Shown: positions 9,881 to 62,857 of the stretch, in pieces
Layout: the number at the start of each line of letters is the position of its first letter
Position numbering within the stretch: the stretch's first letter is position 1
Source of the DNA: a virus
Virus record (IMG/VR): IMGVR_UViG_3300048997_000353
Location: 32,001 to 96,000 of that record
DNA length: 64,000 nucleotides
Direction: 5' to 3' (one strand)
Made by a program: the position numbers and the translations under genes
Notes under the pieces: generated by a model
What the model was told of the DNA's origin: nothing
Databases searched by the model: none
Seen by the model: the letters and a program-made list of their open reading frames with translations, nothing else

Positions 9881-11112
9881 AGGGCCGCGGCCCCTGCTTC
9901 CGTCGAAATTTGTTGGACGACTTCCTGCACAATGCCCATCGGATCGATCAAGACTGTATCATGAGAGATACAAATTTTGCGATACTCCGGCCAATCACAC
10001 GCCACAATAATTGTTGGACAATCCAGAACCTGAGCCATGCTGTGCGTGTGGACGGCCATCACATCATGCGCGCGCACGCGGCGCCCGCGGCTCTGCAGGG
10101 CTTGTTTCCACCATTGCCCGGGCGAATCATCGGAGATGGGCGTACCTGATTTGTAAGCCAAGCCCAGAATGCCCACATCGCCGTGCGGCTGGACCTGTTC
10201 GAGCACCGACCGGAGCATTCTCTTGTTCATGATGTCGGTGGCTTCGGCCATGGGAGACCGCTCGCCCACCATCGTTGCTACATACTGAAACATGCGGTTG
10301 TCGCGCGGAAAGCACGGACCGCCAAAGGGCAACCCCGCCCTGAGCGCGAGATGGCCCACGCGCGGATCCGCTCCGATCGCATCGAGAATCTTCTCCTGGC
10401 TCGCGCCCATCCTCTTCGCGACCAGTCCCACCTGGTTGGCAAAACTGATTTTCATGGTGATCGCGCAGTTGAGAGAGATCTTCGCGAGTTCTGCTTCGAC
10501 AAGAGACATATGCTTGGCCGGCGGATTGTGACAGACCATTTGCCGGTAAAGTTCTTCGACTTTCCGGCTGGCCGATTCACTGTCAGCGCCAATGAGCAAC
10601 AGCGACGGATGATGCAGATCCCGAATCACCGTGCCCAGCGCGATGAATTCAGGTTTGTACGCGAGGCCATAATGCTTGCCGAGCAGCCGGTCCAGGAGCG
10701 GTGCCGCCCGGCCCGCACAAAATCCTGGCGTGACCGTCGAATTCACGATGAACAAATAATTGCGTCGGCCCTGCCTGGCAACTTCCCGCGCCACGGCCGC
10801 AATTGCCGTGAGCAGGTGTCCGTGATCGAAACTGCCATCGCTCAAGCTGGGCGTGGCTGTGACGAACAAACATGCATCGCTCAACTGCACTGCGTCCTGT
10901 ACATTGATCGTAGCGGATAGATTATTTCTGACAGTGGATAGGTCCAGGTAATCCTGCAGATCAGGTTCCGCCACGGGAGCCTGGCGGGCGTTGACGAGCT
11001 GCACTTTCTGAATGTCCAGATCGAAGCCAACCGTCGGAACATCGGACGCCGCGAATACGGCCGCAATGGGTGCGCCCAATTTTCCCAAACCACACACTGC
11101 TATTCCGCGCAT
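9877..11112 (-). CDS. UDP-glucose/GDP-mannose dehydrogenase family nucleotide-sugar dehydrogenase
   Basis: GLGKLG Rossmann motif, STVTPG, PEFIALG, catalytic FGGPCFPRD, LGLAYK. Confidence 0.92.
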   Translation of the reverse strand: MRGIAVCGLGKLGAPIAAVFAASDVPTVGFDLDIQKVQLVNARQAPVAEPDLQDYLDLSTVRNNLSATINVQDAVQLSDACLFVTATPSLSDGSFDHGHLLTAIAAVAREVARQGRRNYLFIVNSTVTPGFCAGRAAPLLDRLLGKHYGLAYKPEFIALGTVIRDLHHPSLLLIGADSESASRKVEELYRQMVCHNPPAKHMSLVEAELAKISLNCAITMKISFANQVGLVAKRMGASQEKILDAIGADPRVGHLALRAGLPFGGPCFPRDNRMFQYVATMVGERSPMAEATDIMNKRMLRSVLEQVQPHGDVGILGLAYKSGTPISDDSPGQWWKQALQSRGRRVRAHDVMAVHTHSMAQVLDCPTIIVACDWPEYRKICISHDTVLIDPMGIVQEVVQQISTEAGAAAL

Positions 11113-11651
11113 TTTCGGCCGCCTGTCAAGAAGTTGAACGGCTTCCTTACACCGCCACTGTTATGTTCCGCAGCTTGGAGCGCGAGTTTTAAGCGATGGA
11201 TCGGTTTCATACGTCCGGTTGAGAACAGGGATCCGCGCGCCGCCATTTCAGCGCAGCCGCAGGCGTCGTAGCCATCCAGATTCTCGGCCACTTGATAATC
11301 AGAATCAATTCTAAACAGCCGGCCAGCGTATCCAACTAGGAACGTGCCGCCTGACTCTTGTTCCTTTTCCCTTGTTGCCCAACCTCCATCCTTAAAGACT
11401 TTGCGGATTTCTTCCACGACCACACAGACCATGTACGGAAAAACGCCCATGGCCGTCGGCCGCGGAGTGAAAGGCGGCGCGTAGCGAAGTAACTGGCCCA
11501 TCCTGAAACTCGACGTAAACCCCATAATGAATCGGCCCGCCACAAATATTTTTTCATCTGATCTCAGTGACAGATCGTAACCACCGAGAGCAGCGGAGTC
11601 GGCTCCCATATGAATACGGTCCTTGTCTATAATTCCTACAATGCAGGTCAT
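11100..11651 (-). CDS. HslV/proteasome-beta-like Ntn hydrolase
   Basis: Start at ATG 11651 (ATGA overlap): MTCIVG...MGADS...KIF...ACGCA...A.G, with an N-terminal Thr nucleophile position. Confidence 0.75.
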   Translation of the reverse strand: MTCIVGIIDKDRIHMGADSAALGGYDLSLRSDEKIFVAGRFIMGFTSSFRMGQLLRYAPPFTPRPTAMGVFPYMVCVVVEEIRKVFKDGGWATREKEQESGGTFLVGYAGRLFRIDSDYQVAENLDGYDACGCAEMAARGSLFSTGRMKPIHRLKLALQAAEHNSGGVRKPFNFLTGGRKCAE

Positions 11652-12454
11652 GCTCTCCTCGCAACGATGAGCAAATGCCAGCCCAACAGTTTCTCCAAAA
11701 GCTGGAATAGCGGCTTCGGCATCCAGCGGTAATACCAGCACTTTACATATCTGTGCTCGATGTAATCTGAAACCTTCCATGGGAAGATGTGTGTTTTTCT
11801 AATGCTCACAACTTCAAACCCGCAGGCCCGCAAAAGTTCTCGTGCTTGCCGTCCGGAATAAACGCGCGCGATCGGACAGCCGGCCTGCGCTTCGGGCTGG
11901 TGTTCCAAGAGATTTTTGATGGACCATTTCGCGTAGAGCATGATGCGCAGTTCGCCGTCATCGCGAAGGCAGGCTCTCATGTTCTTAAGGACGGCGCCTG
12001 GGTGGGGTGTGTGATGCAAAACTCCGAACGCGTAGGCCAGATCAAATCCTTCATTGCTGATTCGCGGTGGCAGCGGATCTTCTGCATTGGCACAGAGGAA
12101 TGCTGCGTTTTTATAACCTTTGTTGGCAACTCGATTGAACGCGAGCGTAATACTCTGCGAAGACAGATCAACGGCATCGATGTGAAACACGCCCGCCCGG
12201 CAGAACTCCAACGTGTCGGTTCCGATTCCGCAGCCGATTTCCAGCACGCGCTTATTTCTCCAGCGGGGATTGCGGCCGATACCGGACCAGGCTCCAAATT
12301 GAGCGAATATCGGAATATGCGGCTCGACTAAATATTTGCGGTTTGTTACCTCACGTGACCACAAATCGCTGCCGGTAGGGGCCTTGGAGTGGCGCACGTT
12401 GCACGGGCGCTTGTCCCAAAAGGCTTGGACCTGCTCGATCACGAACCGCCCCAA
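11648..12454 (-). CDS. Class I SAM-dependent methyltransferase
   Basis: VLEIGCGIG motif I; FDLAYAFGVLHH. Confidence 0.9.
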   Translation of the reverse strand: MGRFVIEQVQAFWDKRPCNVRHSKAPTGSDLWSREVTNRKYLVEPHIPIFAQFGAWSGIGRNPRWRNKRVLEIGCGIGTDTLEFCRAGVFHIDAVDLSSQSITLAFNRVANKGYKNAAFLCANAEDPLPPRISNEGFDLAYAFGVLHHTPHPGAVLKNMRACLRDDGELRIMLYAKWSIKNLLEHQPEAQAGCPIARVYSGRQARELLRACGFEVVSIRKTHIFPWKVSDYIEHRYVKCWYYRWMPKPLFQLLEKLLGWHLLIVARRA

Positions 12455-15795: not shown

Positions 15796-16452
15796 TTAGG
15801 AAGTGCTGTCCGTGATGAGTCCGTATGCGGCGAGAGCGGTGAGCAAACTGGCGAGCGCGGCGTTCGCGCCCTTCGATCCGCTGACGGTTTGTTTCGCTGC
15901 GGGCGTTGTGGAGAAGAAGCCGACATCCCCATTTATCTGAAGAGCATTATCCGCTTGAAGATTACCTCCAAAACGCCACAGCGACGCTGATGCATTCCAT
16001 CCCAATGAACCGCCAGAAACAGCTTCGTCGGCGTAAATAGCGAAATCGCCTGACTGGAAAGCATTGATTGCTGCGAACCTGCTAGGGGCGGCCTTGTCAT
16101 AAAAAACTACGTTGAACACAGCGTTACTATTACTGTCCGTTCCCAAAGCTAGCAGCGCATGTTCGCCGTCAAAATTACCTACACCTTTCCCCGAGATGAC
16201 GATCTCGCACTCGTCAAATTCCAAAACATGCCCACCCATCGCAAACGTCTTATCCGCCGTGGGATCTAGGATCTGATCGAGCGTGGGAAAGCTTCCGCCC
16301 CCGCCACCACCGCCGATAGCTGCGCCAGCCGCATAAATCTGGCCTGTTACATCGTCGATTTCCAGCGATGGAATAATGGCTCCGTTAGATTGCTGTTCAA
16401 AAACTGGCGAGGAATTGCCAACAGGAATTGCGACCAATCTTCGCAGTGCCAT
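15796..16452 (-). CDS. Putative head fibre/decoration protein
   Basis: C-terminal GFFSTTPAAKQT...ALASLLTALAAYGLI resembles head-fibre ends; follows the capsid genes. Confidence 0.6.
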   Translation of the reverse strand: MALRRLVAIPVGNSSPVFEQQSNGAIIPSLEIDDVTGQIYAAGAAIGGGGGGGSFPTLDQILDPTADKTFAMGGHVLEFDECEIVISGKGVGNFDGEHALLALGTDSNSNAVFNVVFYDKAAPSRFAAINAFQSGDFAIYADEAVSGGSLGWNASASLWRFGGNLQADNALQINGDVGFFSTTPAAKQTVSGSKGANAALASLLTALAAYGLITDSTS

Positions 16453-16937
16453 TATTTTCCTACCCAGCCCGAAGAAGTAGATCCTCCGGATTCCTTGACA
16501 TAGAGCGTAGTGCCAGCTCCTCCACTCAAATTCAGATAGATCGATCCGACTGGTGCCGCCACCACGCCCGCGGGACTACCAATTCCGCTCATCGGGAGAA
16601 TCGTGCCACCTTGAAAACTTGCACCAGGCCCCGAGCTGCTCACGGTCACGCCAACGCTCACGCCCGCGCCGCCAGTCCACGTCGCAACCAAAATGAAATT
16701 GTCGTAGGTATCGCTGAGGGCAATGACCCGCTTGGCATTCGTCAGTCCCGCGTACGTGTCGAGGATCGCGACGTCGCCATTGTTCTTCACGCCCTGCACA
16801 ACCAGGTTCACCGTGGCGGGCGCGCCCTTAATTACGTAATCGAATTCGATGGAGGTGCTGTTCTGCAGAGCGTTTGAAATGGTGACGAGCTTGCCGGATT
16901 CATCGACCGTGAACTGCTGCTGCTGAACTTGGCTCAT
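16452..16937 (-). CDS. Putative virion decoration protein
   Basis: C-terminal GSPAGVVAAPVGSIYL...LYVKESG...GW motif, common in virion proteins. Confidence 0.6.
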   Translation of the reverse strand: MSQVQQQQFTVDESGKLVTISNALQNSTSIEFDYVIKGAPATVNLVVQGVKNNGDVAILDTYAGLTNAKRVIALSDTYDNFILVATWTGGAGVSVGVTVSSSGPGASFQGGTILPMSGIGSPAGVVAAPVGSIYLNLSGGAGTTLYVKESGGSTSSGWVGK

Positions 16938-16961
16938 GAAATCTCCTGTGGTACTCTGCTG

Positions 16962-17047
16962 CGCACATCACGTAGCGGCATGTTCCCACTGGTCATGACA
17001 CGACGCGACATGTCCGCACACGACGGGACGTTACGGAGCAGCAAAAC
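16962..17047 (+). repeat. Orphan pentamer-repeat unit
   Basis: AGCGGC(16974) ATGTT CCCAC TGGTC ATGAC ACGAC GCGAC ATGTC CGCAC ACGAC GGGAC GTTAC GG AGCAGC(17037) AAAAC; spacing 63 = 8+5x11. Confidence 0.85.
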
Positions 17048-17060
17048 TAAACCAAGACAA

Positions 17061-17091
17061 TGGCGGGAGCGATTCGTAGTCGCTCCCGCCA
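17061..17091. terminator. Intrinsic terminator after the capsid gene (possibly bidirectional)
   Basis: Perfect 12-bp hairpin TGGCGGGAGCGA/TCGCTCCCGCCA with T-rich flanks on both strands. Confidence 0.75.
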
Positions 17092-17102
17092 CCTTTGTTT
17101 CC

Positions 17103-19019
17103 TTAGCTTTGGACCGGACCGTACTTGGCTTCGGCCTTTTTCAAGATGCGGGAGAACAACGCTTTCACTCCGGCCTTGAGGAAGGAAGATTTCTCAACCA
17201 CACGCGCAGCGCGTTCGCCGTATGTGCGATAGAGATCCATAACCAACTTGGCAACTGGTCCCGACTTTTCGTAGTCGTTGACCAGCCAAGTGCGGCACTT
17301 GCTGACCCGAGGTCCGGTGAAGAAATTCTCATCGAACGCGACTGCTGCCAGCCAGCACGGAGCCACAAAAGGACCGATTCCGGTTCTCACAGCAGTAATC
17401 CACGGCATGTAGTGAGCCAATACTTGGTGGATGTACGTGCCGAAGGTCCACTGCCGGGAAACCGTGGGCCACTCGATCGCGTAGTAATCCCGTTGAGTCA
17501 GGAACTGCCGCACGGCCGGGATCCGGCTATGCGGGTAGGGATTGGTGTTGATGTCGTACACGATCGTGCCGGCGGGAAACATCGGATGGAGCCGGATGGG
17601 AATGACGGCGGAACCGGTGGGGCTGATGGAGTATTTGGATTTGTACCCCGTCACGGCGAAGCCGGCGGTCAAGCCGGAATCCTGGCCCGCTTTGTCGTAC
17701 CCGAACACGAAGCTGTTGGTGCCCGTCGACGAGTAGATCACTGCGGACTCGAGTGAGGCGCGGACGTCGGACGAAACCCAGATAGCATCGGGTTGGGCTT
17801 GGTAGTTATTCCACATGAAGGCGAGGTCGGCTTCGATTTCGGCGACTTGGCCATTGCCGGCGGGGGTCAAGCTTCCGCCGTTCATGTCGGTCCAGTTTCC
17901 GTTGAGGAAAGTGTAAGTACCGAGGCCATCGAAATCGGTGGTCTGGTAGCTGTTGTCAACGTTGAGGCCAGCGGCGGCACCGGTTTGTGTTCCTGCAGCG
18001 GCAGCGACGATGGTGTAGCTGGGCCATGCGGTGATGGCGCCGAGTTTCACGTTGGCGGCGGATGCGGATACGTTCACACCCCAGAACCAGGCATAGGCGA
18101 CAGCGCCCTTCATGGCGGGGATGGAGACGTTAACTTTTTGTGCCGCTGCGTTTGTGGTCACGAGGGCGGCCACGTTGGAAATGGCGCTGCAGCCGCAGGC
18201 CACGTTCGTGGTTGTGCCGTCCGCGTTGGTCCGAACGTAATTGGTGGTGAGACCGTTTACGACGGAAGGGGGAGCCGCATAGCCGGCCTGTCCGCCCGGG
18301 TTCATGCCCATGCCGGTGATGGCGACAACCGCCACAACGACGTTGGCCGAAGTTCCGAGCGCGCCCGTTCCTGTTGCCAGGGCAGACGTCACGTTCGTGG
18401 CTTGACCGAGAGCGAAACCCAAGTTGCCGGCGTTGAGCGAATTGGGACCGGAGTTGCCCCAGATCGTCATCATTTCCTCTTGGAGCCGGAGGCGCGCCAA
18501 GTTGCGGAAATGTTCGTCGGCCAGGTTATCGGTGTAGCCTTCCCCGGCAAACTGCGCCGTGAACGTTTCTCCACCGTCCATGCCCATTTCCTTGTAAGTC
18601 GCGAGGTAATCGACTTCGTTCGGCGTGGCGATGGCGTTGCGTTGCCCTTCGAGCAAACCGGAATAGACGAACGTGGAGTTCGGATTCCGCGTGGCCTTCC
18701 AGTGCGCCGAGGTGCCGACGCCGGCATTCACTTTTCCGGACTTGCCGATCATCTGGATGAACGGCGTGAGCAACGGGAAAATGAAATAGGCGGGCCCGCG
18801 CAGATCGTAAAAATTGAAGCCGAGGGCGGTGGTGACGCCGGCCTTGATCAGCGCGCGGCCGGCACGCTTAACCAGCGGATGTTCGGGCGACCAGTCCTTG
18901 AGGGGGATGGCTCGTGCCTGCTTGCAAAGGTCGGCAATTTGCGGATCCGACATCGCCTTTGCCATCTGCCCGCGGCTCATCATGGTAGCGGCCGCGTACA
19001 TTTCTTGCGGAACTTTCAT
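17103..19019 (-). CDS. Major capsid protein with a C-terminal CFI-box-CTERM-like domain
   Basis: Follows portal-protease-scaffold and is followed by a strong terminator. The last 84 aa start CWLAAVAF...LYRTYGERAA. Confidence 0.75.
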   Translation of the reverse strand: MKVPQEMYAAATMMSRGQMAKAMSDPQIADLCKQARAIPLKDWSPEHPLVKRAGRALIKAGVTTALGFNFYDLRGPAYFIFPLLTPFIQMIGKSGKVNAGVGTSAHWKATRNPNSTFVYSGLLEGQRNAIATPNEVDYLATYKEMGMDGGETFTAQFAGEGYTDNLADEHFRNLARLRLQEEMMTIWGNSGPNSLNAGNLGFALGQATNVTSALATGTGALGTSANVVVAVVAITGMGMNPGGQAGYAAPPSVVNGLTTNYVRTNADGTTTNVACGCSAISNVAALVTTNAAAQKVNVSIPAMKGAVAYAWFWGVNVSASAANVKLGAITAWPSYTIVAAAAGTQTGAAAGLNVDNSYQTTDFDGLGTYTFLNGNWTDMNGGSLTPAGNGQVAEIEADLAFMWNNYQAQPDAIWVSSDVRASLESAVIYSSTGTNSFVFGYDKAGQDSGLTAGFAVTGYKSKYSISPTGSAVIPIRLHPMFPAGTIVYDINTNPYPHSRIPAVRQFLTQRDYYAIEWPTVSRQWTFGTYIHQVLAHYMPWITAVRTGIGPFVAPCWLAAVAFDENFFTGPRVSKCRTWLVNDYEKSGPVAKLVMDLYRTYGERAARVVEKSSFLKAGVKALFSRILKKAEAKYGPVQS

Positions 19020-21412: not shown

Positions 21413-23872
21413 TCAAGAAACTTCAGCCTCATCGCTAATGACTAGAGCACACAGGCAATTCACATGCGCTGGATAGGTGGGCACGGATGCGATCGAATAG
21501 GGCGAGCCCGCCTCGAGTTCGTCGCACTCATCATCCAGGTCGTGATTGGAACTCATTTGCCAATCCACGAATTTGACGATTCCTGATTTCCGCCAGGACT
21601 CTAAATTCCCGTTTACTTGCGCGCTCGAGATCTCCGTTCTGGCAATCATGGCGGCGCGCTGGTCGTTGAAGATTCCGGACTTGTCGATCCGCGCTTCGAT
21701 ATCCGCGAGCTTGGGCGTTTTTTCTTCCGCGAACAGTTCCGTCACGATGTCGTGGATTTTTGTTCTGGTGGTTTCACTGATGGCCCACTTCGCATCCGGA
21801 TTGGCAATGAGCTTGCCAGAATTGGTGACTTTCATTCCCACCATTTCGGCGGCGCGCGCCGAAGCCCATTCCTGCGCTGCTTCGTTCATTCCGGAAATCA
21901 TGTCCTCATCGGAAATGTCGAGCTGCAGGATCCCGTTGGACACGCCGGCAATGGCGGCGTCCTGAAAATATTCTTCCGTCTCTTCCGCAATTTTGCGCCA
22001 GTCATCCGCGATCGATCGCAAAATTGCTTTCACTGTATCGTCCGCGGCCGCTTTGTGCAGCGTGGGTTCCATCGTTGCGGCCATGTGTCTATCCGGAAGA
22101 CCGAGAGACTTGGCCAATTGCTTTTTGGTTTTCCGCTTCATGGTCGCAAAGTGATCCTTCACAACTTTTTCCACGGCGTTTTTGGCAATGATGGATTGTG
22201 GCGCCAATCGATCGGGCGTGATTTTGATGCGTGCGCTCTTGCCGAATTTGAGAGAACCGGCGGCTTTGCCTTTGCCTTCTTTGCCTTTACCCGGAGGCGT
22301 CTGCTGTGCGCCAGCGCCGCCCTTCCCAGGTTTCTCCCCTCCTTTGTCACCGCCGGTCTCTTCTTGACCAGGAAGTCCGATTTGTCTGCGCGCTGTACCG
22401 TTTACCGCAGTTGCTTGCTGGTGTCGCTGCAATTCCATCTTGGCCTGCGATTCCAGCGCGGCCTGGCCCAGCAAAACAAATCCAGTACCGGTAATGATGC
22501 CAAGTTGCGAGGCCTCCGGTTCGTTCCGATCGTCCTCACCCAGCCGTTCGCGGCCTTCGTTCGGCGTGATAATTCCGCCGCCCACCAAAATTTTAATCGT
22601 TTCCGCATTTTTTTGCGGATCAGGTTCGGTGAAGGGCTGGAACGCCATCTCATAATCCGGCAGATTGAATTTCTGCTGGATTATGTAATCGATCAAGCCT
22701 TTGATGAAATCGACCCAGGGCAGCGTGCCTTCTTCGACCGATGCTTCCTGCGATTGCTCGGCCGACGCGCGGTTCATCGCGCGGATCAGTCGTTGCGCCG
22801 ACGTGCCAAATCCGAAAGCAATCTTCCGGATATGCATGTCGTCGAATTCGTCCTTGAGCAAGGGCTCTTTGGTGAAAATAATTTGGTCGGGTTTTTCAGC
22901 ATCATTGAAGCCTTGTACCATCCGCCACTGCCGGCGCGCGGCTAGATTGCCCGCCAGTTCCGAATTCATCCAGGTCATCGCTTCCGCGATTTTGTCGGGC
23001 GGCGTGCCCTTGGGCACAACCTGCACAACGCCTGGCGTCGAGCCTTCCGTGTAATAGGCCAAGGTAAAAGCCAGCCGCTGCGCGCCAATTTCAATTTCCG
23101 TTGCGAGCTGCTCGACAGGGGACATTCCGTAGAGTTGGGAAGAAATCGTATTCCGCGGAACGATGTTGCGCGGCTTGTAAATGAGTTGGTCGGTAGTCAG
23201 ATTGACAAGCGGAATGCCCCACCAGTTTTGCGCGTAAGCAGGTTGCGGCGGCATCGGCGTCCAGCCATTCACGTCGATGTACCGCACAATGGAATCGCCG
23301 CGAAGAACGGGCAACTCCACAATTTCTCCCTTGAAGGTTTTGCGAATCAAAATGGCGACGGCATCGAGCACCAGCAGATCGTCCATCAGTGGCCGAAGCC
23401 ATTCCTGCCAGTTGTGTTCCCGGTCCGGGCGTTCGAAGAATTTACTGAGCTTGACGATTTGCGCATCGCCCTCAGCGCGCTTCTTCGCTTCTTTCTTGGT
23501 TTCTCCCGGTTTGCGGCGTAGTTGAACTTCCCAGGGAATTTTCGCGACGGAATCTTTGACATTCTCGATACAGATCCTCGCGAGGGGATACATCGCGAGC
23601 GCCTTGAGCGCCGCCGCCGAATATTCAGCATCCGCGCGCGGCGTATACAGCAAGTTCTGGCCAGCCCAATATTGAAACCCGCGTGGCTCGGTTCCTTCCG
23701 GCGCAATGGGTTTGACAGGTTGAAGGGGAGAATACCAAGTGCCGGCATCGATACCACGGATGGTTTCATCGGGCGGTTGATAGAGCTGACGGCCGTATTG
23801 CTGGAGCGCCTGGACAACAGGGCCAAGGTTGCGGACAGTGATCCCGGAACCGGACCCTGGAGAATTAGCCAT
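21413..23872 (-). CDS. Portal protein fused to a MuF-like head morphogenesis domain
   Basis: Portal motifs (YGMSPVE, ITPNEGRERLG) followed by RAAMIARTE...PAHVNCLC. Confidence 0.88.
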   Translation of the reverse strand: MANSPGSGSGITVRNLGPVVQALQQYGRQLYQPPDETIRGIDAGTWYSPLQPVKPIAPEGTEPRGFQYWAGQNLLYTPRADAEYSAAALKALAMYPLARICIENVKDSVAKIPWEVQLRRKPGETKKEAKKRAEGDAQIVKLSKFFERPDREHNWQEWLRPLMDDLLVLDAVAILIRKTFKGEIVELPVLRGDSIVRYIDVNGWTPMPPQPAYAQNWWGIPLVNLTTDQLIYKPRNIVPRNTISSQLYGMSPVEQLATEIEIGAQRLAFTLAYYTEGSTPGVVQVVPKGTPPDKIAEAMTWMNSELAGNLAARRQWRMVQGFNDAEKPDQIIFTKEPLLKDEFDDMHIRKIAFGFGTSAQRLIRAMNRASAEQSQEASVEEGTLPWVDFIKGLIDYIIQQKFNLPDYEMAFQPFTEPDPQKNAETIKILVGGGIITPNEGRERLGEDDRNEPEASQLGIITGTGFVLLGQAALESQAKMELQRHQQATAVNGTARRQIGLPGQEETGGDKGGEKPGKGGAGAQQTPPGKGKEGKGKAAGSLKFGKSARIKITPDRLAPQSIIAKNAVEKVVKDHFATMKRKTKKQLAKSLGLPDRHMAATMEPTLHKAAADDTVKAILRSIADDWRKIAEETEEYFQDAAIAGVSNGILQLDISDEDMISGMNEAAQEWASARAAEMVGMKVTNSGKLIANPDAKWAISETTRTKIHDIVTELFAEEKTPKLADIEARIDKSGIFNDQRAAMIARTEISSAQVNGNLESWRKSGIVKFVDWQMSSNHDLDDECDELEAGSPYSIASVPTYPAHVNCLCALVISDEAEVS

Positions 23873-24800: not shown

Positions 24801-24875
24801 TGGAGCGCCTGGCGCGATTCGAACGCGCGACCCGCCTCTTTAGAGAAGGCTACTCTACCGCTGAGTTACAGGCGC
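24801..24875 (-). tRNA. tRNA with CUA anticodon (amber suppressor), Gly-like acceptor
   Basis: GCGCCTG TA ACTC AGCGGTA GAGT A GCCTT CTCTAAA GAGGC GGGTC GCGCG TTCGAAT CGCGC CAGGCGC T CCA. Confidence 0.9.
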
Positions 24876-24908
24876 CCGGTGCAAAAACCATGTCAAATCG
24901 CGTGCATA

Positions 24909-25388
24909 TTATTCCAACGATTCGACCAAGCTGGTGCCCGGTCCGCACTCAAGCGCAGTGAGCTGCCGCCCACTACCGGGCAGAGAATTGGTGCGGACGG
25001 TAGGATTTTCACCCACACTTTCAGCTTTAGAGGCCGACGTGCCTGACACCGCGTCCGCAGTGTATTTCCAAAGTCGGTAGTTCTTCAGCGCCGCGCGCTG
25101 TTCCCCCGTGATCGGAGCCGTGGCAATCGCCGTAAATCCAAAGTTATTATCCGGTTCGGTCCAGAGGTAGTGCGGGATGTAGTTGGCTTGCAGCTTCGCC
25201 ACGACGCGGCGCAAAGCGGCCACACCGGGCAGGCCGACGACGATGATATTGGGAACGAGATCTTCGTTGGGGTGCTGGATGGCGGCGAGATGGAAAACTG
25301 CATGATTGGCTTGAACGATTTGGTGAGCGACAGGAATGTCCTGTCTAACGAAAACGTACACTGCATGGTCAGTGGGAATCTATGTCAT
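24909..25388 (-). CDS. PTH2-like peptidyl-tRNA hydrolase with an in-frame TAG at codon 3
   Basis: YVFVRQDI..AHQIVQANHA..WTEPD..TAIATAP is PTH2/PTRHD1-like. ATG ACA TAG at 25388-25380 is in frame with GTG 25361. Confidence 0.75.
24932..24981 (-). ncRNA. 50-nt mini tRNA-like element with acceptor stem and ACCA end
   Basis: GCCCGGT...ACCGGGC-A-CCA encloses the hairpin AGTGGGC-GGCA-GCTCACT and a short second hairpin. Confidence 0.6.
24989..25058 (-). tRNA. Atypical 70-nt CUA tRNA (small D-arm, tRNA-Pyl-like T-loop)
   Basis: GCGGACG CG GTGT CAG GCAC G TCGGC CTCTAAA GCTGA AAGT GTGGG TGAAAAT CCTAC CGTCCGC A CCA. Confidence 0.75.
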
Positions 25389-33256: not shown

Positions 33257-33999
33257 GCCGCTAGCTTCAGTCCTGGTTTCGTCGTGTAATATCTAGTGAT
33301 GCCGCCTCGTGCAGTCACGTGAAGTGTGGTGATGCCGCTGCATCCTGTTTTGCCTGACTCAGTTTCGCCGTTAGATGGTGCCGACCGGCTCCGCTTTGTC
33401 GTGCCGCTAAGTCGAGTCCGAAATTGTCTCGTCATGTCATGCCGCTACATTTCGTTTCGTCCGGTTTGCAAATTGCCGCCCCCGCGATGCTGCGTGATGC
33501 GATGTCCTGTCAAGCCGCTCGGTCTGGCGGTGCGAAGTGGAATCGAGTAACGCCGCTCTGTCCGGTCAGGTATGGTTCAGTGGGGTAAAGCCGTTTCGTT
33601 AAGTTTTGTCCTGTCACGAAATGTCCTATCAGGCCGCTGTGTTCAGTTCTGTTCTGTGGTGTCGCATACGGCCGCTGCATCGAATTTTGTAAGATTTAAT
33701 CTGGCGTTGCCGCTCCGTGGGATCCAGTAGTATCAAGTAAAGTCTGGTCAAGCCGCTGTGTATTTGTCATGTCACGTCCAGTCGGGCCGCTCGGTCAAGT
33801 TGTGCCGTGTGCGGTCTAGCCCGGCCGCTCCGTGGAGTTCAGTTTCGTTCAATTGCGTCCTGCCGCTACGTGACGTAAAGTTCGGTGAAGTGGTGCCGCT
33901 GAGTCACGCTTGGTGAAGCGGTGCCGCTCCGTGGTGTCATGCCGCGCCTGGTTGAGCAATGCCGCTATGTGGTGTGGCGTGATGTTAAGTGACGCCGCT
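33257..33999 (-). repeat. Pentamer-periodic repeat array 1 (21 motif copies)
   Basis: GCCGCT-like motif (+ strand) at spacings 44,33,33,36,38,34,39,38,38,43,38,38,43,34,38,38,33,28,38,33. The intervening DNA is made of GTNNN pentamers. Confidence 0.92.
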
Positions 34000-34179
34000 C
34001 GGTTTTTGGAAAATGAATGGGAACCGCTGAACATTGGAGTAACAGTCCAACTCTTTGCGGTTCCCCTTGAAACGGCCACGGCTCCGAGGCTAATCGCGGG
34101 TTGATCGTAAGCAGTTACGATGCTTCGTATCCCTATCGCCGTCCTCCGCCTATAGCTCCACTTGGTCACTAGGGCCGTT

Positions 34180-34371
34180 TCAATTACCAATCTTGGCGCG
34201 GACAAAGCAGTCTTTTGCCTCAAGCAGTTTGCGGAGTCCAGCCGATTTCTCAGGCCCATCAGGAAGTTGCGCGTCCATCGAGCAGGCGAGCGCGAATACA
34301 TCTCCGCTCACGCCCCTTAGGTGCTCTGGTAAGTGTGCGAAGTCGAAATATTTCATAATCGGTGATGGCAC
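34180..34371 (-). CDS. Small conserved phage helical-hairpin protein (possibly Acb2/Tad1-like)
   Basis: GGAGG SD and GTG start; YFDFAHLP...PDGPEKSAGLRKLLEAKDCFVRA. Confidence 0.65.
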   Translation of the reverse strand: MPSPIMKYFDFAHLPEHLRGVSGDVFALACSMDAQLPDGPEKSAGLRKLLEAKDCFVRAKIGN

Positions 34372-34439
34372 AGTGTTCCTCCATTTCGAGTTGCGATTAT
34401 AAGGGGCCGGATTCGGCGCTCCGGCCTGCGCTTCGTGAT

Positions 34440-35255
34440 TTAAGCCGTCGCCGCCTTGGCTGTTTCCGCGCCGTTCGCCTTGGCTGGTGCCTCGATCACT
34501 GGCTTCTCCCGCTTCTTCTGCCGGTCGCCCATCTCGATCTCGGCTTCGTCGACCCGGAAGCGGCCGCGGCCCAGCGATCGGCAACTGCCCAAACCGCACA
34601 TCATAATCATCGCAGTGACGTCGGTAAGATCAACCTCCTTCACGTTGGTGGTCAAGAATCGGAAGTTGAACGAAAATCTCGAGCCCGACGCCACACACTC
34701 GGAATGCTGGTAAATGCTCTTGGGTCCCTTCGGCGTATTCACCGAACCCATGAACGCACTCCAATAAGTTTTGGCCGGGCCTGTCATGTCCTCGTTCAGC
34801 ATGTACACCTTGTCCGGGGAATCAGCGTCGAGCAAACTAAATCCATCGGCCAAGACGCGCGCTGCTTCCGAGAAATCACCCTTCGTTCCCCGCAGATCGG
34901 AAAATATTTTGAGACGCGATGCGGCCTGCTTTATGCAGGCCTGCACCATCCAGTTGCCGATATACGCTCCGCGCTCCGTGCGCCGGAGAGCGTTGACTCC
35001 ATACACTTGCTCGGGCTGCAATTCCCCGGTTTCGCTCGGAAGTTCCTCCTGCCCAACCTCTTCGTGAAGGATTCTCTGGACAGCCTTCTCGGCATCATCG
35101 CCGGTCAGTTCCAAATGATGCTCCACGAACGCGCGAACACCACGTTCATCCGCTGGTTGCCCGCCCACAAACTCGGTTACGAAAGTGGCTTGCACTTTCA
35201 CAACTCCCGTTAGTTTCTGGTAAATCGCTTCTAGGTCTTTTGCGTTGAATTTCAT
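34440..35255 (-). CDS. Stand-alone RAMP (Cas7/Csm3-like) protein
   Basis: 271 aa. Beta1 followed by GG; YIGNWMVQACIKQAA helix; SE strand; C-terminal Gly-rich loop GLGSCRSLGRGRF. AAAGGAG SD. Confidence 0.8.
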   Translation of the reverse strand: MKFNAKDLEAIYQKLTGVVKVQATFVTEFVGGQPADERGVRAFVEHHLELTGDDAEKAVQRILHEEVGQEELPSETGELQPEQVYGVNALRRTERGAYIGNWMVQACIKQAASRLKIFSDLRGTKGDFSEAARVLADGFSLLDADSPDKVYMLNEDMTGPAKTYWSAFMGSVNTPKGPKSIYQHSECVASGSRFSFNFRFLTTNVKEVDLTDVTAMIMMCGLGSCRSLGRGRFRVDEAEIEMGDRQKKREKPVIEAPAKANGAETAKAATA

Positions 35256-35329
35256 TTTCTGTTCTCCTTTGTGATCTGCGAACGAATCGATCATTGCTCG
35301 CTAGATTTCGTGCCGAAAAGTTTCGTTTT

Positions 35330-36062
35330 GCCGCTATGTGGTGTCCAGTAGCGTGTGGTCATGCCAAGTACAGTAGCGCCGCTCTGTGCGGTCGAGTAAC
35401 TGTCGAATTGGGTCCGGTCTTGTCGTGCCGCTCTGTGACGTATAGTAAAGTCTTGTCTTGTCCCGCCGCTCTGAACGGTTGAATGGAGTTGGGTGCCGCC
35501 GCTGGGTCGCATCGTGTAATGTTCTGTCATGCTTCGCGACGCCGCTGGATACTGCGATGTCGAGTGTAGTCGAGCCGTTGCGTGGAATATGGTGAAGTGG
35601 CGTACTGCCGCAGTAGTGCCACGCGCTGTCCAATGCGGAATTGCCGCTCGGTCGAGTCCGGTGCAGTAGGGTCTTGTGGTATGGAGCCGCTGCGTAGAAT
35701 CGAGTCCTGTGACATCATGGGTTGCCGTTTTATTCTGCTCGGTTTGGTCGAAGTCAAGTTTGCCGCTCCGTCATGCCGCTCTGTCGTGTCGAGTTCAATG
35801 GTGTGCGGTCGTGTAAAGTCCTGCCGCTCCGTGCTGCCAGGTTGTGTCGTGTGAGATGGGGTATAGCCGCTCTGTTGCATAGAGTTATGTTGTGTCCAGC
35901 CGCTCAGTCTTGTCGTGTCTGGGCATGTGGAGTTTGGCCGCTGTGTAAAGCTCAGTTCGAGTGCGCTTTGCCGCCTGCGTGATGCCGTGCGCGATGGTGT
36001 AATGCCGCTGAATCGGGTGCCAACTTGTGAAGTGCTGTCAAATGGCATCTTGTCGAGCCGCT
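35330..36062 (-). repeat. Pentamer-periodic repeat array 2 (20 motif copies)
   Basis: Spacings 48,49,38,33,43,33,33,36,43,38,38,13,48,43,33,38,33,34,53. Confidence 0.92.
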
Positions 36063-36065
36063 AGA

Positions 36066-36398
36066 TTATTTCTTTCCGGTTGGAGTTCCGCAGTTCGAAC
36101 AGAACTTCGCACCTGCGATTTGCGTGTTACAGGTTCCGCAGATCAAGTCCTCCGGTGCAGGCCCCGAAATGAGACGGATCTCCTTCTCGGGCCGCTTACC
36201 GCGGTTTAATCGTTGGTTTTGAATCATCAAATCGCCAATTTTGCAAAATATTTTGGCATTGCCTTGTTTGATGCGCGCGACAGCTTCCGTCATGGAGCCA
36301 TCGTCGATCCCTTCTCCGATCTGGTTGACCAGGGCCACAACATCCCCTAGATTTTCAACCTTGATTGTCTTTCTTGCCGCCGGCGGTTGGTCGGTCAT
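36066..36398 (-). CDS. 110-aa protein with a C-terminal double Zn ribbon, between arrays 2 and 3
   Basis: AAAGGAG SD; CGTC...KFCSNCG. Confidence 0.7.
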   Translation of the reverse strand: MTDQPPAARKTIKVENLGDVVALVNQIGEGIDDGSMTEAVARIKQGNAKIFCKIGDLMIQNQRLNRGKRPEKEIRLISGPAPEDLICGTCNTQIAGAKFCSNCGTPTGKK

Positions 36399-36457
36399 CT
36401 TTTCTCCTTTAAGAGTTTAGTTCTCTCGCATTTTTGGGCTTCGTTTTGTTTTGTGTT

Positions 36458-36981
36458 GCCGCTTTATCGAGTAGAGTCACGTACAGTGCTGTCGAGTAAC
36501 GCCGCTGTGTCGCGTACCGTCGAGTCAGGTGACGGCCAGTAGCGCCGCTGAGTAAAGTCGAGTCGGATCGGGTCCCGTATTGCCGTTCCGTAAGGTCACG
36601 TTGGGTTGAGCCGCTGGGTAAAGTCCAGTCTTATCCCGTCGAGTCGCGGAGAATACTGCCGGGTCATGTGGCGCCGCTGCGTTGTGTAAGGTCAAGGATT
36701 GTCGGGTCGAGTGGGGAAAGGCCGCTCGGTGGTATAAAGTTGCGTGCAGTCGGAGCATGCCGCTGCGCAGAGCTGTGTGAGGGAATGTGGCAAATTGCCG
36801 TTCGGTGTGGATAGGTTTCGTCATGTCATGCCGCATTATCAAGTGGAGTCTGGTGGGATCGGGCCGCTTGTCTTGTTGAGTGCGGTGTCGGAGGGTCATG
36901 CCGCTATATTGAATTGGGTCGGGTCGGAGCATGGAAAGTGGGGCCGCTACGACTTGTGACGTTCTGGTTGGTATCGCCGCT
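36458..36981 (-). repeat. Pentamer-periodic repeat array 3 (14 motif copies)
   Basis: Spacings 43,43,38,28,63,48,38,38,33,33,37,43,33. Confidence 0.92.
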
Positions 36982-51480: not shown

Positions 51481-51920
51481 GACTTAAGCCGGACGCCAGC
51501 AGGGACCGGAACAGGGGTTCAACGCATTAGATTCCAGAGCAAAGTTAGGATGTGGCCTTGAGCCGATGATTCCTACTAACTTCCGCGATGTGGCCCCGCG
51601 CCGAATTCGGGATGGTCCTCTGGAGTTGATTAGGTTCCTACAGAATAGCTCTATGGTTTGTTGTCCTATCGCTGACCATAGTGAAGGAAAGCCAATTCCT
51701 CTACCTGTACACAATCCACGGACGAAAGAAGATGCCTAAGTCAGATGAAGCGCAATCGGATAGCGCGGAATTATCCGTCCGACGCGTAGAACGGTAAGTC
51801 TACGCCACAACAGATTTTGCAGATGGACTCCGGTCAGGACCGCCGAGAAAGCGGAACCCGCAGGCTACACGCTAGGCAAACCGGAGTTAATGCACACGGT
51901 CCGTCCAAAGTCGGACCAAA
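51481..51920 (+). ncRNA. Long structured non-coding leader
   Basis: No credible ORF; at least seven visible helices (e.g. GACTTAAGC/GCCTAAGTC, ACTCCGGT/ACCGGAGT, GCGTAGA/TCTACGC). Confidence 0.5.
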
Positions 51921-51952
51921 TTTTGGTGGTGGACGCCAAGGAGAATCAGACC

Positions 51953-52354
51953 ATGCAATCGCGACACGTCAAGGATCAAGGTATGAACTGGATTCGCAAG
52001 GAAAAGCGCCTGGCTATTTATCTGCGTGACGGTCTGGCCTGCGTGTATTGCGGCCAGAGTGTTGAGGATGGCGTGCAATTAACGCTCGATCATCTGATCT
52101 GCTACAAGCACCGCGGCACCAATCACGAATCCAATCTCGTGACGGCTTGCCTTCAGTGCAATTCCTCGCGCGGTGCACGGCCCTGGAAACTGTTTGCCAA
52201 GAAAGTGGCCGGATACATCAACCACGGCGTCACAGCCAAGCAAATCGTTAGCTTCATTAGCAAAACGATTGCGCGGCCGCTGGACGTGAAAGCGGCCCAG
52301 AAACTAATTGCAAGGCGCGGGGGATTCGTCAAGGCTGTGTACGGCAAGCGGTAG
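51953..52354 (+). CDS. HNH endonuclease
   Basis: RDGLACVYCG...LTLDHL...NHESNLVTACLQCNSSRG; AAGGAG SD. Confidence 0.85.
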   Translation: MQSRHVKDQGMNWIRKEKRLAIYLRDGLACVYCGQSVEDGVQLTLDHLICYKHRGTNHESNLVTACLQCNSSRGARPWKLFAKKVAGYINHGVTAKQIVSFISKTIARPLDVKAAQKLIARRGGFVKAVYGKR

Positions 52355-58954: not shown

Positions 58955-59878
58955 ATGGCAACCAAAGCTACTATCGTAGAACAATCCCTCGGAGATCAGC
59001 TACAGGAACGCGCAGTCGGATTGATCCTCACATTCTCCGGCATCGGCAACCGCCGGAAAGTGAGCATGTCCGATGTGGAAGTGGACGCCGACAAGGAACT
59101 CTTGGCGATGTCGAAAAAACTAATCGACGCGGAAGAGTTTGAGGCCATCCAATCGCTCGACGGCGAAGCGCGCCGCTATATCGAAACCCGCGCTCTGCCC
59201 TCGCAATTAAAGAAGGGAATCTATTTACTTCCCAACGCGCTCGTCACCGAAGTGGAAGAAAAACTGTCCGAGTTTGCTGCCAAGCGCGGCACGCTGGTCG
59301 AAGCCTTGCTGCTGCGCTACAGCGAACTGGTTGCCGAATCCCGCCGGCGACTCAAATCACTCTTCGATGCCACTGACTATCCCAACGCTGACTACATCCG
59401 CAACGCGTTCAAGCTGTCCTGGCGCATCATCGGATTCACAACGCCGACCAGCCTCAAGGAACTCGACCGGGCGCTCTACGACCGCGAATGCAAGAAGGCC
59501 GCGGAACAGTGGGCCGAATCGTGGAAAAACATTGAGCAACTTCTCGCGTGGAATCTGGCCGATCTGGTCGAACATTTGATCGGCCGCCTCGAACCCGACG
59601 AGAAAACCGGGAAAAAGAAAACGTTTAAGGACTCCGCCGTGACTAAAATTCAAGATTTCCTCAACACGTTCGACGCGCGGAACATCGGCAATTCAACCGA
59701 ACTCAAGGCGCTGGTCGACAAAACCAGAGTTTTGATTGCGGATGTAAACCCCGAGCAACTCCGCACCAGTCCCCGCACGCGGGATACGGTTGCCAAGGGT
59801 TTCGAGAAGATTGCCGACCTACTCGATCCAATGCTCGTCGAAAAACCAACTCGCGCTATTTCGTTTGAAGAGGATTGA
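58955..59878 (+). CDS. DUF3150-like protein
   Basis: SKKLID, GIYLLP, FDATDYP, LRTSPRTR motifs. Confidence 0.6.
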   Translation: MATKATIVEQSLGDQLQERAVGLILTFSGIGNRRKVSMSDVEVDADKELLAMSKKLIDAEEFEAIQSLDGEARRYIETRALPSQLKKGIYLLPNALVTEVEEKLSEFAAKRGTLVEALLLRYSELVAESRRRLKSLFDATDYPNADYIRNAFKLSWRIIGFTTPTSLKELDRALYDRECKKAAEQWAESWKNIEQLLAWNLADLVEHLIGRLEPDEKTGKKKTFKDSAVTKIQDFLNTFDARNIGNSTELKALVDKTRVLIADVNPEQLRTSPRTRDTVAKGFEKIADLLDPMLVEKPTRAISFEED

Positions 59879-59914
59879 GTTTGGCGGAGTCACCGGCCAC
59901 TTGGCTTCGCCAGG

Positions 59915-59961
59915 CAGGGCGCGCAGTACGTCATGGTCCTGCGCGCCCTGTTCTAACTTTT
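59915..59961 (+). terminator. Intrinsic terminator-like hairpin
   Basis: CAGGGCGCGCAG/CTGCGCGCCCTG followed by TTCTAACTTTT. Confidence 0.7.
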
Positions 59962-59967
59962 CGGTTT

Positions 59968-60022
59968 GTTTTTGCCGCTGGATTTTGTCTCGTGATGTCA
60001 GGTCATGCGGGGTGTCGCCGCA
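59968..60022 (-). repeat. Orphan pentamer-repeat unit
   Basis: + strand: GCCGCT(59974) GG ATTTT GTCTC GTGAT GTCAG GTCAT GCGGG GTGTC GCCGCA(60017); spacing 43. Confidence 0.85.
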
Positions 60023-60034
60023 AAGGAGAATATC

Positions 60035-60700
60035 ATGCTACCGATTATTTGCTTGGGATTTTTGTTAGGCATGAGGCACGCGACTGATGTGGACCATGTG
60101 TTTGCCGTAACGACGCTGGTTTCCCGCTATCGCAGCGCGGCGCGTGCGGCCATCGTCGGCGCGTTGTGGGGTGTTGGACATACGGTCATGGTGATGATCG
60201 TCGGCACTGGAATCATTTTATTCCAGTGGGTGATTCCAGTCCGGGCCGGTTTGGGAATGGAATTTTCGGTTGCCTTGATGCTGGTCGTTCTTGGGATTCT
60301 GAATTTAACCGGAGTCCCAGGCCGACAGGTTGAAGTGTACGATCACGCGACCGATGAATTCGTTCCACGTCCGCAACCACGGCTTGTGGCAACAATCAGG
60401 CCGGTGGTGGTCGGATTAGTTCACGGCTTGGCAGGGTCCGCAGCAATCGCGCTCATGGTTCTCAGTACAATCCACGAACCGCGCTTGGCTGTCGCGTATC
60501 TTGCATTGTTTGGGACCGGAACACTGGCCGGGATGATGCTGATTACAGCGGCGCTCGCGTATTCCTTCACGAAGATGCCAGCGCAGTTACTCCGCATTGG
60601 TTCTGGCATCCTGTCTCTCGGCTTCGGTCTTTTCTTGATCTATCAAATCGGAATCGTCGGTGGGCTCTTTACAAGCCATCCGGTCTGGAGTCCACGATGA
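60035..60700 (+). CDS. NiCoT/HoxN/HupN-type nickel/cobalt transporter
   Basis: LGMRHATDVDH signature, WGVGHT, GLVHGLAGS; about six TM segments. Confidence 0.88.
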   Translation: MLPIICLGFLLGMRHATDVDHVFAVTTLVSRYRSAARAAIVGALWGVGHTVMVMIVGTGIILFQWVIPVRAGLGMEFSVALMLVVLGILNLTGVPGRQVEVYDHATDEFVPRPQPRLVATIRPVVVGLVHGLAGSAAIALMVLSTIHEPRLAVAYLALFGTGTLAGMMLITAALAYSFTKMPAQLLRIGSGILSLGFGLFLIYQIGIVGGLFTSHPVWSPR

Positions 60701-61909: not shown

Positions 61910-61958
61910 GTTTTGCCGCTGTGTGACGTAATGATCCGTGGTGTCTAGTCCTGCCGCT
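61910..61958 (-). repeat. Orphan pentamer-repeat unit
   Basis: + strand: GCCGCT(61915) GT GTGAC GTAAT GATCC GTGGT GTCTA GTCCT GCCGCT(61953); spacing 38. Confidence 0.85.
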
Positions 61959-62014
61959 TTGCAAAAGCATATCACGCAACCGACGCGTAGAAGTCGCAAA
62001 AGGAGAATCGACCA

Positions 62015-62857
62015 ATGGCCACAAAAGTTTGGAAGGGATTTTTGAACTTCGGCCTTGTAACCATTCCAGTATATTTGAATACAGGCGCACGCGGCGAGAG
62101 CGTGAGCCTCAACACGTTCCACGAACCCTGCGGCTCCCGCGTTCGGATGCCGAAGTTCTGCGACACCTGCAACAAACAGATTCCCCCGGAAGAGATCGTG
62201 AAGGGCTACGCGAACGGCGATTCGTATGTGCCCATCACAAAAGAAGAATTGGAATCCATCGCGCCGGCTTCGGACAGGACGATGGAAATTCGCGAATGCG
62301 TCGAAGCCGACAAAGTTGATCCGATTTATTTGGCTGAATCCTTCTACTTGCTCCCGGACGATGCGGGCAGGAAAGCCTATTCCCTGCTGGTCCAGGCGCT
62401 CGCGGATTCCGGGCGCTGTGCCATCGCACAACTCACAAAGAGTAATCGCGAACACATCGTCCTGCTCAGGCCGCGCGAGAATGGCCTCGTGGCGCATTTC
62501 CTTTACTTCGAAAACGAAGTCAACCGCGTGCCTGAGTTTGAATCTCTCAAACAGATCGAGCTGTCGAAGGCGGAGCACAAGATGGCCGCGCAGTTGGTGG
62601 ACGATCTAGCCGCGCCGTTCGAACCTGGCCAGTACGAGGATGGATACTCGATGCGACTCAACGCCTTAATCGCGTCCAAACTCGACAAGAACACACCAGC
62701 ACCGAAACCCATCAAGTCCCAGGCACCTGCGTCAATGGATCTATCGGCGGCGCTGGCGGCTTCGCTGGGCCGACCGAAGCGGAAAATCACGCTCGACGAA
62801 GAACCGGCTGCCCCGAAAAAAGCTGGAGCTGGCAAGAAGGGACGCCGAGTAGCGTAA
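62015..62857 (+). CDS. ku: Ku DNA end-binding protein
   Basis: WKGFLNFGLVTIPV, EIVKGY, IYLAESFYLLP, FEPGQYEDGY, DLSAALAASL. Confidence 0.93.
   Translation: MATKVWKGFLNFGLVTIPVYLNTGARGESVSLNTFHEPCGSRVRMPKFCDTCNKQIPPEEIVKGYANGDSYVPITKEELESIAPASDRTMEIRECVEADKVDPIYLAESFYLLPDDAGRKAYSLLVQALADSGRCAIAQLTKSNREHIVLLRPRENGLVAHFLYFENEVNRVPEFESLKQIELSKAEHKMAAQLVDDLAAPFEPGQYEDGYSMRLNALIASKLDKNTPAPKPIKSQAPASMDLSAALAASLGRPKRKITLDEEPAAPKKAGAGKKGRRVA

Follow-up and report, generated by a model that had tools for sequence, protein, structure and literature searches.

VIPR, a relative of CRISPR, was described in 2026 as a system in which a minimal RAMP protein, Vipr, polymerises on a vrRNA composed of GGY/NN repeats (bioRxiv 10.64898/2026.04.26.720920, 10.64898/2026.04.26.720927 and 10.64898/2026.10.15.759431). 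Within each repeat the GGY is buried and the NN base-pairs with DNA, one base of the target, usually a codon wobble, being skipped; the outcome is transcriptional silencing of rival mobile elements (10.64898/2026.04.26.720920). Vipr is a minimal RAMP that has a single RRM, a G-loop and a thumb, and the repeat tract of the vrRNA is capped by a structured, invariant 3' tail, which in the SUSP1 clade is a pseudoknot. Non-canonical scaffolds have been reported in the literature. Type II VIPR targets DNA on either strand; the authors call natural targets at 80% NN and found no self matches of at least 80% (10.64898/2026.04.26.720920, 10.64898/2026.04.26.720927). A few systems, from enterobacteria and Pseudomonas, have known natural targets, and no mismatch tolerance has been published for VIPR. 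The solo vrRNAs carried by SUSP1-family phages and F5 satellites are a better match to rivals than to self (10.64898/2026.10.15.759431).

We analysed a window of 64,000 nucleotides, bases 32001-96000 of the 108,441-bp single-contig genome of a soil phage (IMG/VR record IMGVR_UViG_3300048997_000353), and the coordinates of the features discussed here are collected in Table 1. The phage encodes a Vipr protein with a RAMP fold: CRISPR RAMPs (Csm3, Cmr4, Cas7 and gRAMP chains) account for almost all of the 50 best structural matches of its AF2 model (pLDDT 79.4), the highest score being that to Csm3 (Z 12.5, rmsd 3.9, 154 aligned). It carries a glycine-rich motif, GLGS.RS.G.G, with invariant glycines. 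Pfam and PDB sequence searches returned nothing for this protein; it has 27 sequence homologues, and relatives are present in 8 IMG/VR contigs, several of which contain same-strand AGCGGC/NAY arrays beside the gene. The longest vipr ORF (34440-35294, minus strand, 284 aa) begins 13 codons upstream of the 271-aa database start, and the 271-aa form aligns with all homologues. Elsewhere in the window we observed an Rfam match to the type-P5 twister ribozyme (51818-51915, plus strand, 39.5 bits for a gathering score of 37.6), which overlaps the start of ORF 51890-52354, and, within 24801-25058 on the minus strand, a tRNA with anticodon CUA, called tRNA-Pyl by ARAGORN, adjoined by a second weak tRNA match. 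The CUA anticodon gives this tRNA amber-suppressor potential.

The vipr gene sits between arrays 1 and 2 of the three vrRNA arrays. Of their 183 scaffolds, 85% have A at position 2 and 100% a pyrimidine at position 3, the following two bases being variable. We took the AGCGGC strand as the RNA strand because the pyrimidine of NAY lies directly 5' of the NN, as does Y3 of GGY, and because of the orientation of the genes in all relatives. Like the type II VIPR of Escherichia phage SUSP1 and of a Pseudomonas fulva prophage, the system is phage-borne, has a Vipr of RAMP fold and uses 5-nt repeats, each with a 3-nt scaffold ending in a pyrimidine and two variable bases, with a 1-nt skip on the wobble. 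Unlike in type II, the scaffold is NAY instead of GGY and the guides are shorter (4-11 scaffolds); the 6-nt AGCGGC punctuation is closer to the 'staggered' arrays mentioned in the VIPR preprint. We identified neither a vap homologue nor a conserved pseudoknot tail in this phage, where the conserved AGCRGC and A-rich end of the three solo units described below is followed by an unrelated terminator-like GC hairpin. Judged by these sequence features, the system is a divergent VIPR, a distant NAY-scaffold branch from soil, and thus already of a known type. When the array guides were compared with the phage's own genome, no enrichment over shuffles was detected under any decoding rule. Contig L127 (IMGVR_UViG_3300030385_002690, 10545-11900) encodes a distant relative of Vipr, with 29% identity, and behind it lies an array with about 30 runs of NAY pentamers, very densely packed, in which the AGCGGC delimiter is absent; the same family thus also has a different punctuation.

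Table 1. Coordinates, in the window, of the solo guide units, of the capsid region and of the vipr region.
Feature	Position	Strand	Basis or remark
Next late gene, 161 aa, function unassigned	16452..16937	-	RBS AGGAG sits just beyond unit A
Candidate promoter of unit A, extended -10-like TGGTACTCT	16949..16957	+	Putative; motif derived post hoc from three solos
Unit A 5' delimiter AGCGGC	16974..16979	+	Identical to the 6-nt punctuation of the arrays
Unit A guide body	16980..17036	+	NN: AT CC TG AT AC GC AT CG AC GG GT GG
Unit A 3' delimiter AGCAGC and A-rich tail AAAACTAAACCAAGACAA	17037..17060	+	Array-like AGCRGC-AAAAC end
GC-rich hairpin and T-rich tracts, bidirectional intrinsic terminator common to unit A and the convergent capsid gene	17061..17102	.	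Terminator scan, folding
Major capsid protein gene, 638 aa, HK97 fold with inserted domain and C-terminal helical extension	17103..19019	-	phrog_13692, AF2 model
Own near-cognate site, capsid codons 538-549 (MPWITAVRTGIG), 21/24	17374..17408	-	Guide decoding, in frame
Three vrRNA arrays, AGCGGC-NN-(NAY-NN)n, interleaved with small genes	33262..36981	-	Array grammar
vipr, RAMP/Cas7-like, 271 aa; protein that would use the unit A guide	34440..35255	-	AF2 model, structural matches
Solo A	16974-17042	+	Best match 21/24 at 17374-17408(-), capsid codons 538-549, about 330 bp away
Solo B	61958-61915	-	Best match 13/14 at 62057-62076, ku codons 15-21, about 100 bp away
Solo C, starts TGCGGC	about 60012-59960	-	Best match 15/16 at 59825-59847, about 110 bp away

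An earlier note on this DNA had pointed to a unit with the exact array grammar, with 11 pentamers of which 8 end in AC and an AGCAGC AAAAC end, and our re-reading of the sequence agrees: the observation is real. Unit A (16974-17047, plus strand) reads AGCGGC ATGTT CCCAC TGGTC ATGAC ACGAC GCGAC ATGTC CGCAC ACGAC GGGAC GTTAC GG AGCAGC AAAAC, and in the alternative phase, after AT, its pentamers are GTTCC CACTG GTCAT GACAC GACGC GACAT GTCCG CACAC GACGG GACGT TACGG. The core is composed of 12 variable NN dinucleotides and 11 three-base scaffolds, 8 NAC and 3 GTY, in the order GTT CAC GTC GAC GAC GAC GTC CAC GAC GAC TAC; position 3 is thus a pyrimidine in 11 of 11, matching the 100% of the array scaffolds. 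The unit occupies most of the 165-bp spacer between the stop of the capsid gene and the start of the next late gene. Both of these genes are on the minus strand. The AGCGGC strand of the unit is, as the note had claimed, antisense to the late mRNA, and it runs into a 14-bp GC hairpin (17061-17091; -29.7 kcal/mol and z -5.6 on the plus strand, -27.4 and z -4.9 on the minus strand) with T-rich tracts on both sides, which scores in a terminator scan as an intrinsic terminator for both strands. The nearest array is 16.2 kb away from the unit, and vipr 17.4 kb. Megablast of the unit A region against GenBank phages gave no match.

We observed that the regular expression AGC[GA]GC(...[AGT][CT]){4,12}..AGC[GA]GC, which describes the grammar, has two matches outside the arrays, unit A and 61915-61958 on the minus strand, and none in 300 Markov-1 simulations of the window without arrays, so that the pattern exceeds its simulated controls. 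The analytic chance expectation for unit A is about 1e-7 to 1e-6 per window; a model with two delimiters at 5n+8 spacing and at least 8 of 11 A-Y scaffolds gives about 1.5e-7 per window. A caller that ignores delimiters and looks for runs of at least six NAY pentamers returned the arrays and unit A only when applied to the complete genome of 108 kb, while 363 kb of relatives' capsid loci yielded no such run. A resemblance to the array grammar by mere chance, for which nothing speaks beyond the shortness of the delimiter, is already refuted by the expectation of about 1e-7 per window, by the 300 empty simulations and by the target matches reported below, which are an independent functional signal; we give this reading practically no credence.

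Two further solo units were found in the window. Solo B (61915-61974, minus strand) consists of AGCGGC, 7 NN, AGCGGC-AAAAC and a hairpin, and it lies 57 bp upstream of ku, with divergent transcription. Solo C, invisible to the AGC[GA]GC expression owing to its TGCGGC start, lies in a region (59825-60035) where a terminator hairpin is common to the solo and to gene 58955-59878, in a convergent layout like that of unit A. The three solos have the same layout, that is, delimiter, guide, AGCRGC, A-rich AAAAC-type run and GC hairpin. AGCRGC with such a run also terminates arrays 2 and 3, the exact AGCRGC-AAAAC form being that of array 2 and of solos A and B.

A standard sigma-70 scan found no promoter at unit A. 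Upstream of it lies the extended -10-like sequence TGGTACTCT, itself preceded 17 nt upstream by TTGGCT (16929-16934). The motif TGRTAYNCT has six matches on the two strands of the window; three of them (16949, 60027 and 61966) lie 4-16 nt upstream of the three solos and the other three are at 23729, 40054 and 44978. Derived post hoc, this motif is only a promoter lead, and the promoter of unit A would be a weak, extended -10-like candidate.

We then read the unit A guide against the whole genome with three choices of informative bases and skips of 0-3, that is, 12 combinations. The sole rule with a signal was the published VIPR rule (NN after the scaffold, skip of 1), which gives 21/24 at the near-cognate site in the phage's own capsid gene, 330 bp from unit A. 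The maximum among 100 shuffled guides was 19, and in a larger set 0 of 500 shuffles reached 21 (null mean 16.6). The alternative codes (NN one base later, all three variable bases, skips 0-3) gave no excess over the shuffled background, trivial self-alignment aside, and were rejected. At the own site every skipped base falls on a wobble position. Guide A reads as M P W I T A (I/M) R T G V G, and the own allele MPWITAVRTGIG differs from it by Val/Ile, Ile/Val and a synonymous Arg (AGA versus CGN); these three mismatches are neutral or conservative for the capsid protein. This decoding predicted that a natural allele MPWITAIRTGVG exists in relatives.

Solos B and C behave in the same way: their best matches are in frame, with the skips at wobble positions, and each has one protein-neutral mismatch. 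For solo B, whose match is in antisense orientation to ku, it is a synonymous Leu (TTG versus CTN), and for solo C, which matches the last codons of gene 58955-59878, it is Val versus Ile/Met. The best genome-wide match of each solo adjoins the unit (70-400 bp), a closeness with a chance of about 1% per unit.

We assign gene 17103-19019, downstream of the portal gene (21413-23872), to the major capsid protein on the basis of its structural matches to phage capsids and encapsulins. The AF2 model (pLDDT 63.8) gave VIA Z scores of 11.1 with Pa223, 11.0 with SPO1, 9.4 with SU10 and 7-8 with HK97, and further capsid and encapsulin structures match over residues 73-552; a Foldseek search of the model against PDB was weak, and Pfam and PDB sequence searches returned nothing. 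The 12 targeted codons lie at the end of the HK97 core. The idea that they form the most conserved capsid stretch was rejected, since they rank 201 of 627 windows, which is moderate conservation. The capsid matches of some relatives (L024:3001-4827, L013 and L036) are interrupted in frame by stop codons close to their 3' end (TAA/TGA, TAA and TAG, respectively), which probably reflect tblastn extension past the true stop of a short-form capsid rather than recoding.

Guide A has the same sense as the capsid mRNA and can therefore pair only with DNA, in keeping with VIPR. This orientation also bears on another proposal, a conventional cis-antisense RNA or terminator element acting on read-through late mRNA and unrelated to VIPR. 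In its favour, unit A is antisense to the late transcript and directly adjoins a terminator that works in both directions by its scan; however, the decoded guide is of the same sense as the capsid mRNA, and the delimiter grammar, the 5-nt periodicity and the gapped 24/24 capsid matches described next would be left unexplained, which makes the proposal very improbable in our view.

A search of IMG/VR with the 24-base pattern of guide A returned 5 contigs, each at the homologous capsid site HYMPWITAIRTGVGPFV, whereas 596 Gb of prokaryote (bacterial and archaeal) genomes do not contain the exact pattern at all. We compared the site in 86 loci of relatives, which contain 50 distinct site sequences. 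The score of 24/24, with all 12 NN of unit A paired, is reached by four distinct DNA versions from four lineages of related soil phages, which differ solely at the skipped wobble bases; among the other versions, six score 23, fifteen 22, eight 21 and the rest 17-20, so that the self score of 21 is in the lower half of the distribution of the relatives. Guide A was the only guide of this phage to match when all were tested against relatives, namely 614 kb of their capsid loci and three of their genomes in full, and its other guides had no match in the 24/24-matched phages. No Vipr homologue was detectable in those 24/24-matched phages that were examined whole, including one 87-kb contig rated complete. 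For solos B and C no foreign perfect target was found, their neighbour genes being almost without relatives in the collections: ku has none in IMG/VR and gene 58955-59878 has one, with 32% identity. The 23 exact matches of the 16-base pattern of solo C were rejected as targets, as they lie in unrelated contexts and are at chance level.

These matches support the view of the earlier note that unit A is a stand-alone guide gene ending at the hairpin, as do the array grammar and the layout common to the two other solos. Its other suggestion, a cis site through which the RAMP complex regulates late genes, did not hold up, unit A being a guide with cognate sites at 24/24 in the capsid genes of relatives; partial self-regulation through its own 21/24 near-match may nevertheless take place. 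A related idea is that guide A is meant for the phage's own capsid gene, VIPR at the 21/24 site tuning or timing the expression of the capsid and downstream late genes. The best self matches of all three solos do lie within 70-400 bp of the unit, VIPR silencing is a transcription block from either strand, and the self site, at 87.5% NN, is above the 80% at which the VIPR authors call targets, so that self may not be spared. However, all three solo guides are imperfect to self and guide A is perfect to four foreign lineages, although selection for self-binding should favour a perfect match; there is no obvious benefit in blocking the late protein that is needed most abundantly, and the published VIPR guides are without self matches of at least 80%. 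We consider such autoregulation unlikely.

Unit A could also be a relic, a former array guide or an acquisition from another phage that is no longer transcribed or loaded. Indeed, 27% of its scaffolds are not NAY, the promoter scan found no canonical promoter and no counterpart is present in relatives. But 24 of 24 guide bases still match natural targets, both delimiters are intact, Y3 is kept in 11 of 11 scaffolds, and the unit agrees with the other two solos in its upstream motif, its AGCRGC-AAAAC end and the layout of its terminator. Since decay would erode these features, the reading of a silent unit is weakened and appears to us distinctly improbable. The missing counterpart itself says little: we found none downstream of the capsid gene in 96 loci of relatives, but the closest sampled capsid is only 73-75% identical, so that conservation cannot be shown. 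In five whole contigs with the same type of Vipr we found no solo units, the candidates of a loose caller being without delimiters, tail or hairpin, and the solo layout may be lineage-specific.

We think it probable that unit A is an allele-discriminating solo vrRNA of a divergent VIPR, directed against rival relatives, with the phage's own allele escaping. In this mechanism, unit A would be transcribed on the plus strand from the weak extended -10-like promoter and its transcript would end at the hairpin that it has in common with the convergent capsid gene. Each NAY scaffold would be occupied by one Vipr protomer, and the 12 NN dinucleotides would be presented; with one base skipped per unit, these would read positions 1 and 2 of 12 codons in a row, ATnCCnTGnATnACnGCnATnCGnACnGGnGTnGG, which encode MPWITAIRTGVG. 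The complex would then occupy the capsid gene of a co-infecting relative and silence it, and the own allele, with its Arg encoded by AGA, would presumably escape via its three mismatches at guide-defining bases. The guide stays beside this presumably resistant allele, and this adjacency would hold weapon and resistant allele together through recombination. Counted against this explanation are the 3 of 11 scaffolds that are GTY instead of NAY, the weak, post hoc promoter and the absence of a sampled counterpart.

Unit A resembles the published solos in being a single unit away from vipr, with NN and a 1-nt skip, rival elements as predicted targets and a lower match to self (21/24) than to rivals (24/24). 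Unlike them, it is carried by a VIPR-positive soil phage and is built from NAY scaffolds with AGCGGC delimiters, versus GGY and a pseudoknot tail. It also adjoins the near-cognate allele of the phage itself (87.5% NN); the report on solos does not describe this layout (10.64898/2026.10.15.759431). The target here is the major capsid gene of relatives, versus vipr, vrRNAs, satellites and REP decoys for the published solos. VIPR and solo vrRNAs are already published, and it is the placing of a guide beside a resistant allele that is absent from the VIPR preprints.

Such a placing recalls the free-standing homing endonucleases of T-even phages (Seg/Mob), which cause localized marker exclusion, or 'intronless homing': the weapon gene lies beside the phage's own resistant allele of the sequence that it attacks in co-infecting relatives, and the two are inherited together. 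Seg and Mob are protein nucleases which cut DNA and drive gene conversion, whereas guide A would direct a non-nucleolytic silencing filament; we saw no nuclease in the locus, and the analogy is functional only. Viruses of Sulfolobales reportedly carry mini-CRISPR arrays against closely related viruses (Medvedeva et al., 2019). Virus-borne mini-arrays of this kind are consistent with superinfection exclusion or interviral conflict; those of Sulfolobales viruses use host Cas proteins and contiguous spacers and are not beside the cognate gene. Unit A is like them in being a virus-carried guide gene aimed at close relatives.

More tentatively, and with somewhat more doubt than belief, we propose that the solos and the resistant alleles of their targets are linked weapon-plus-immunity cassettes. 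In a mixed infection, the guide would silence an essential gene in the version that the rival carries (for unit A, the major capsid gene), and only genomes or recombinants with the adjacent resistant allele, and hence the guide, would be productive. If so, phages would be engaged in a kind of localized marker exclusion or gene drive that is guided by RNA, and the first-position synonymous switches (Arg AGA/CGN in solo A, Leu TTG/CTN in solo B) would be footprints of escape from a guide that is blind to the wobble.

From sequence alone, the 1-nt-skip code is also valid in the distant NAY-scaffold branch from soil, and the locus provides a clean natural VIPR target, the major capsid gene of rival phages. 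If the three mismatches spare self, it would be a compact natural test bed for the mismatch tolerance of VIPR and for its discrimination of self from non-self, and it would be evidence for RNA-guided silencing as a selfish, linked pair of weapon and immunity in the competition between phages.
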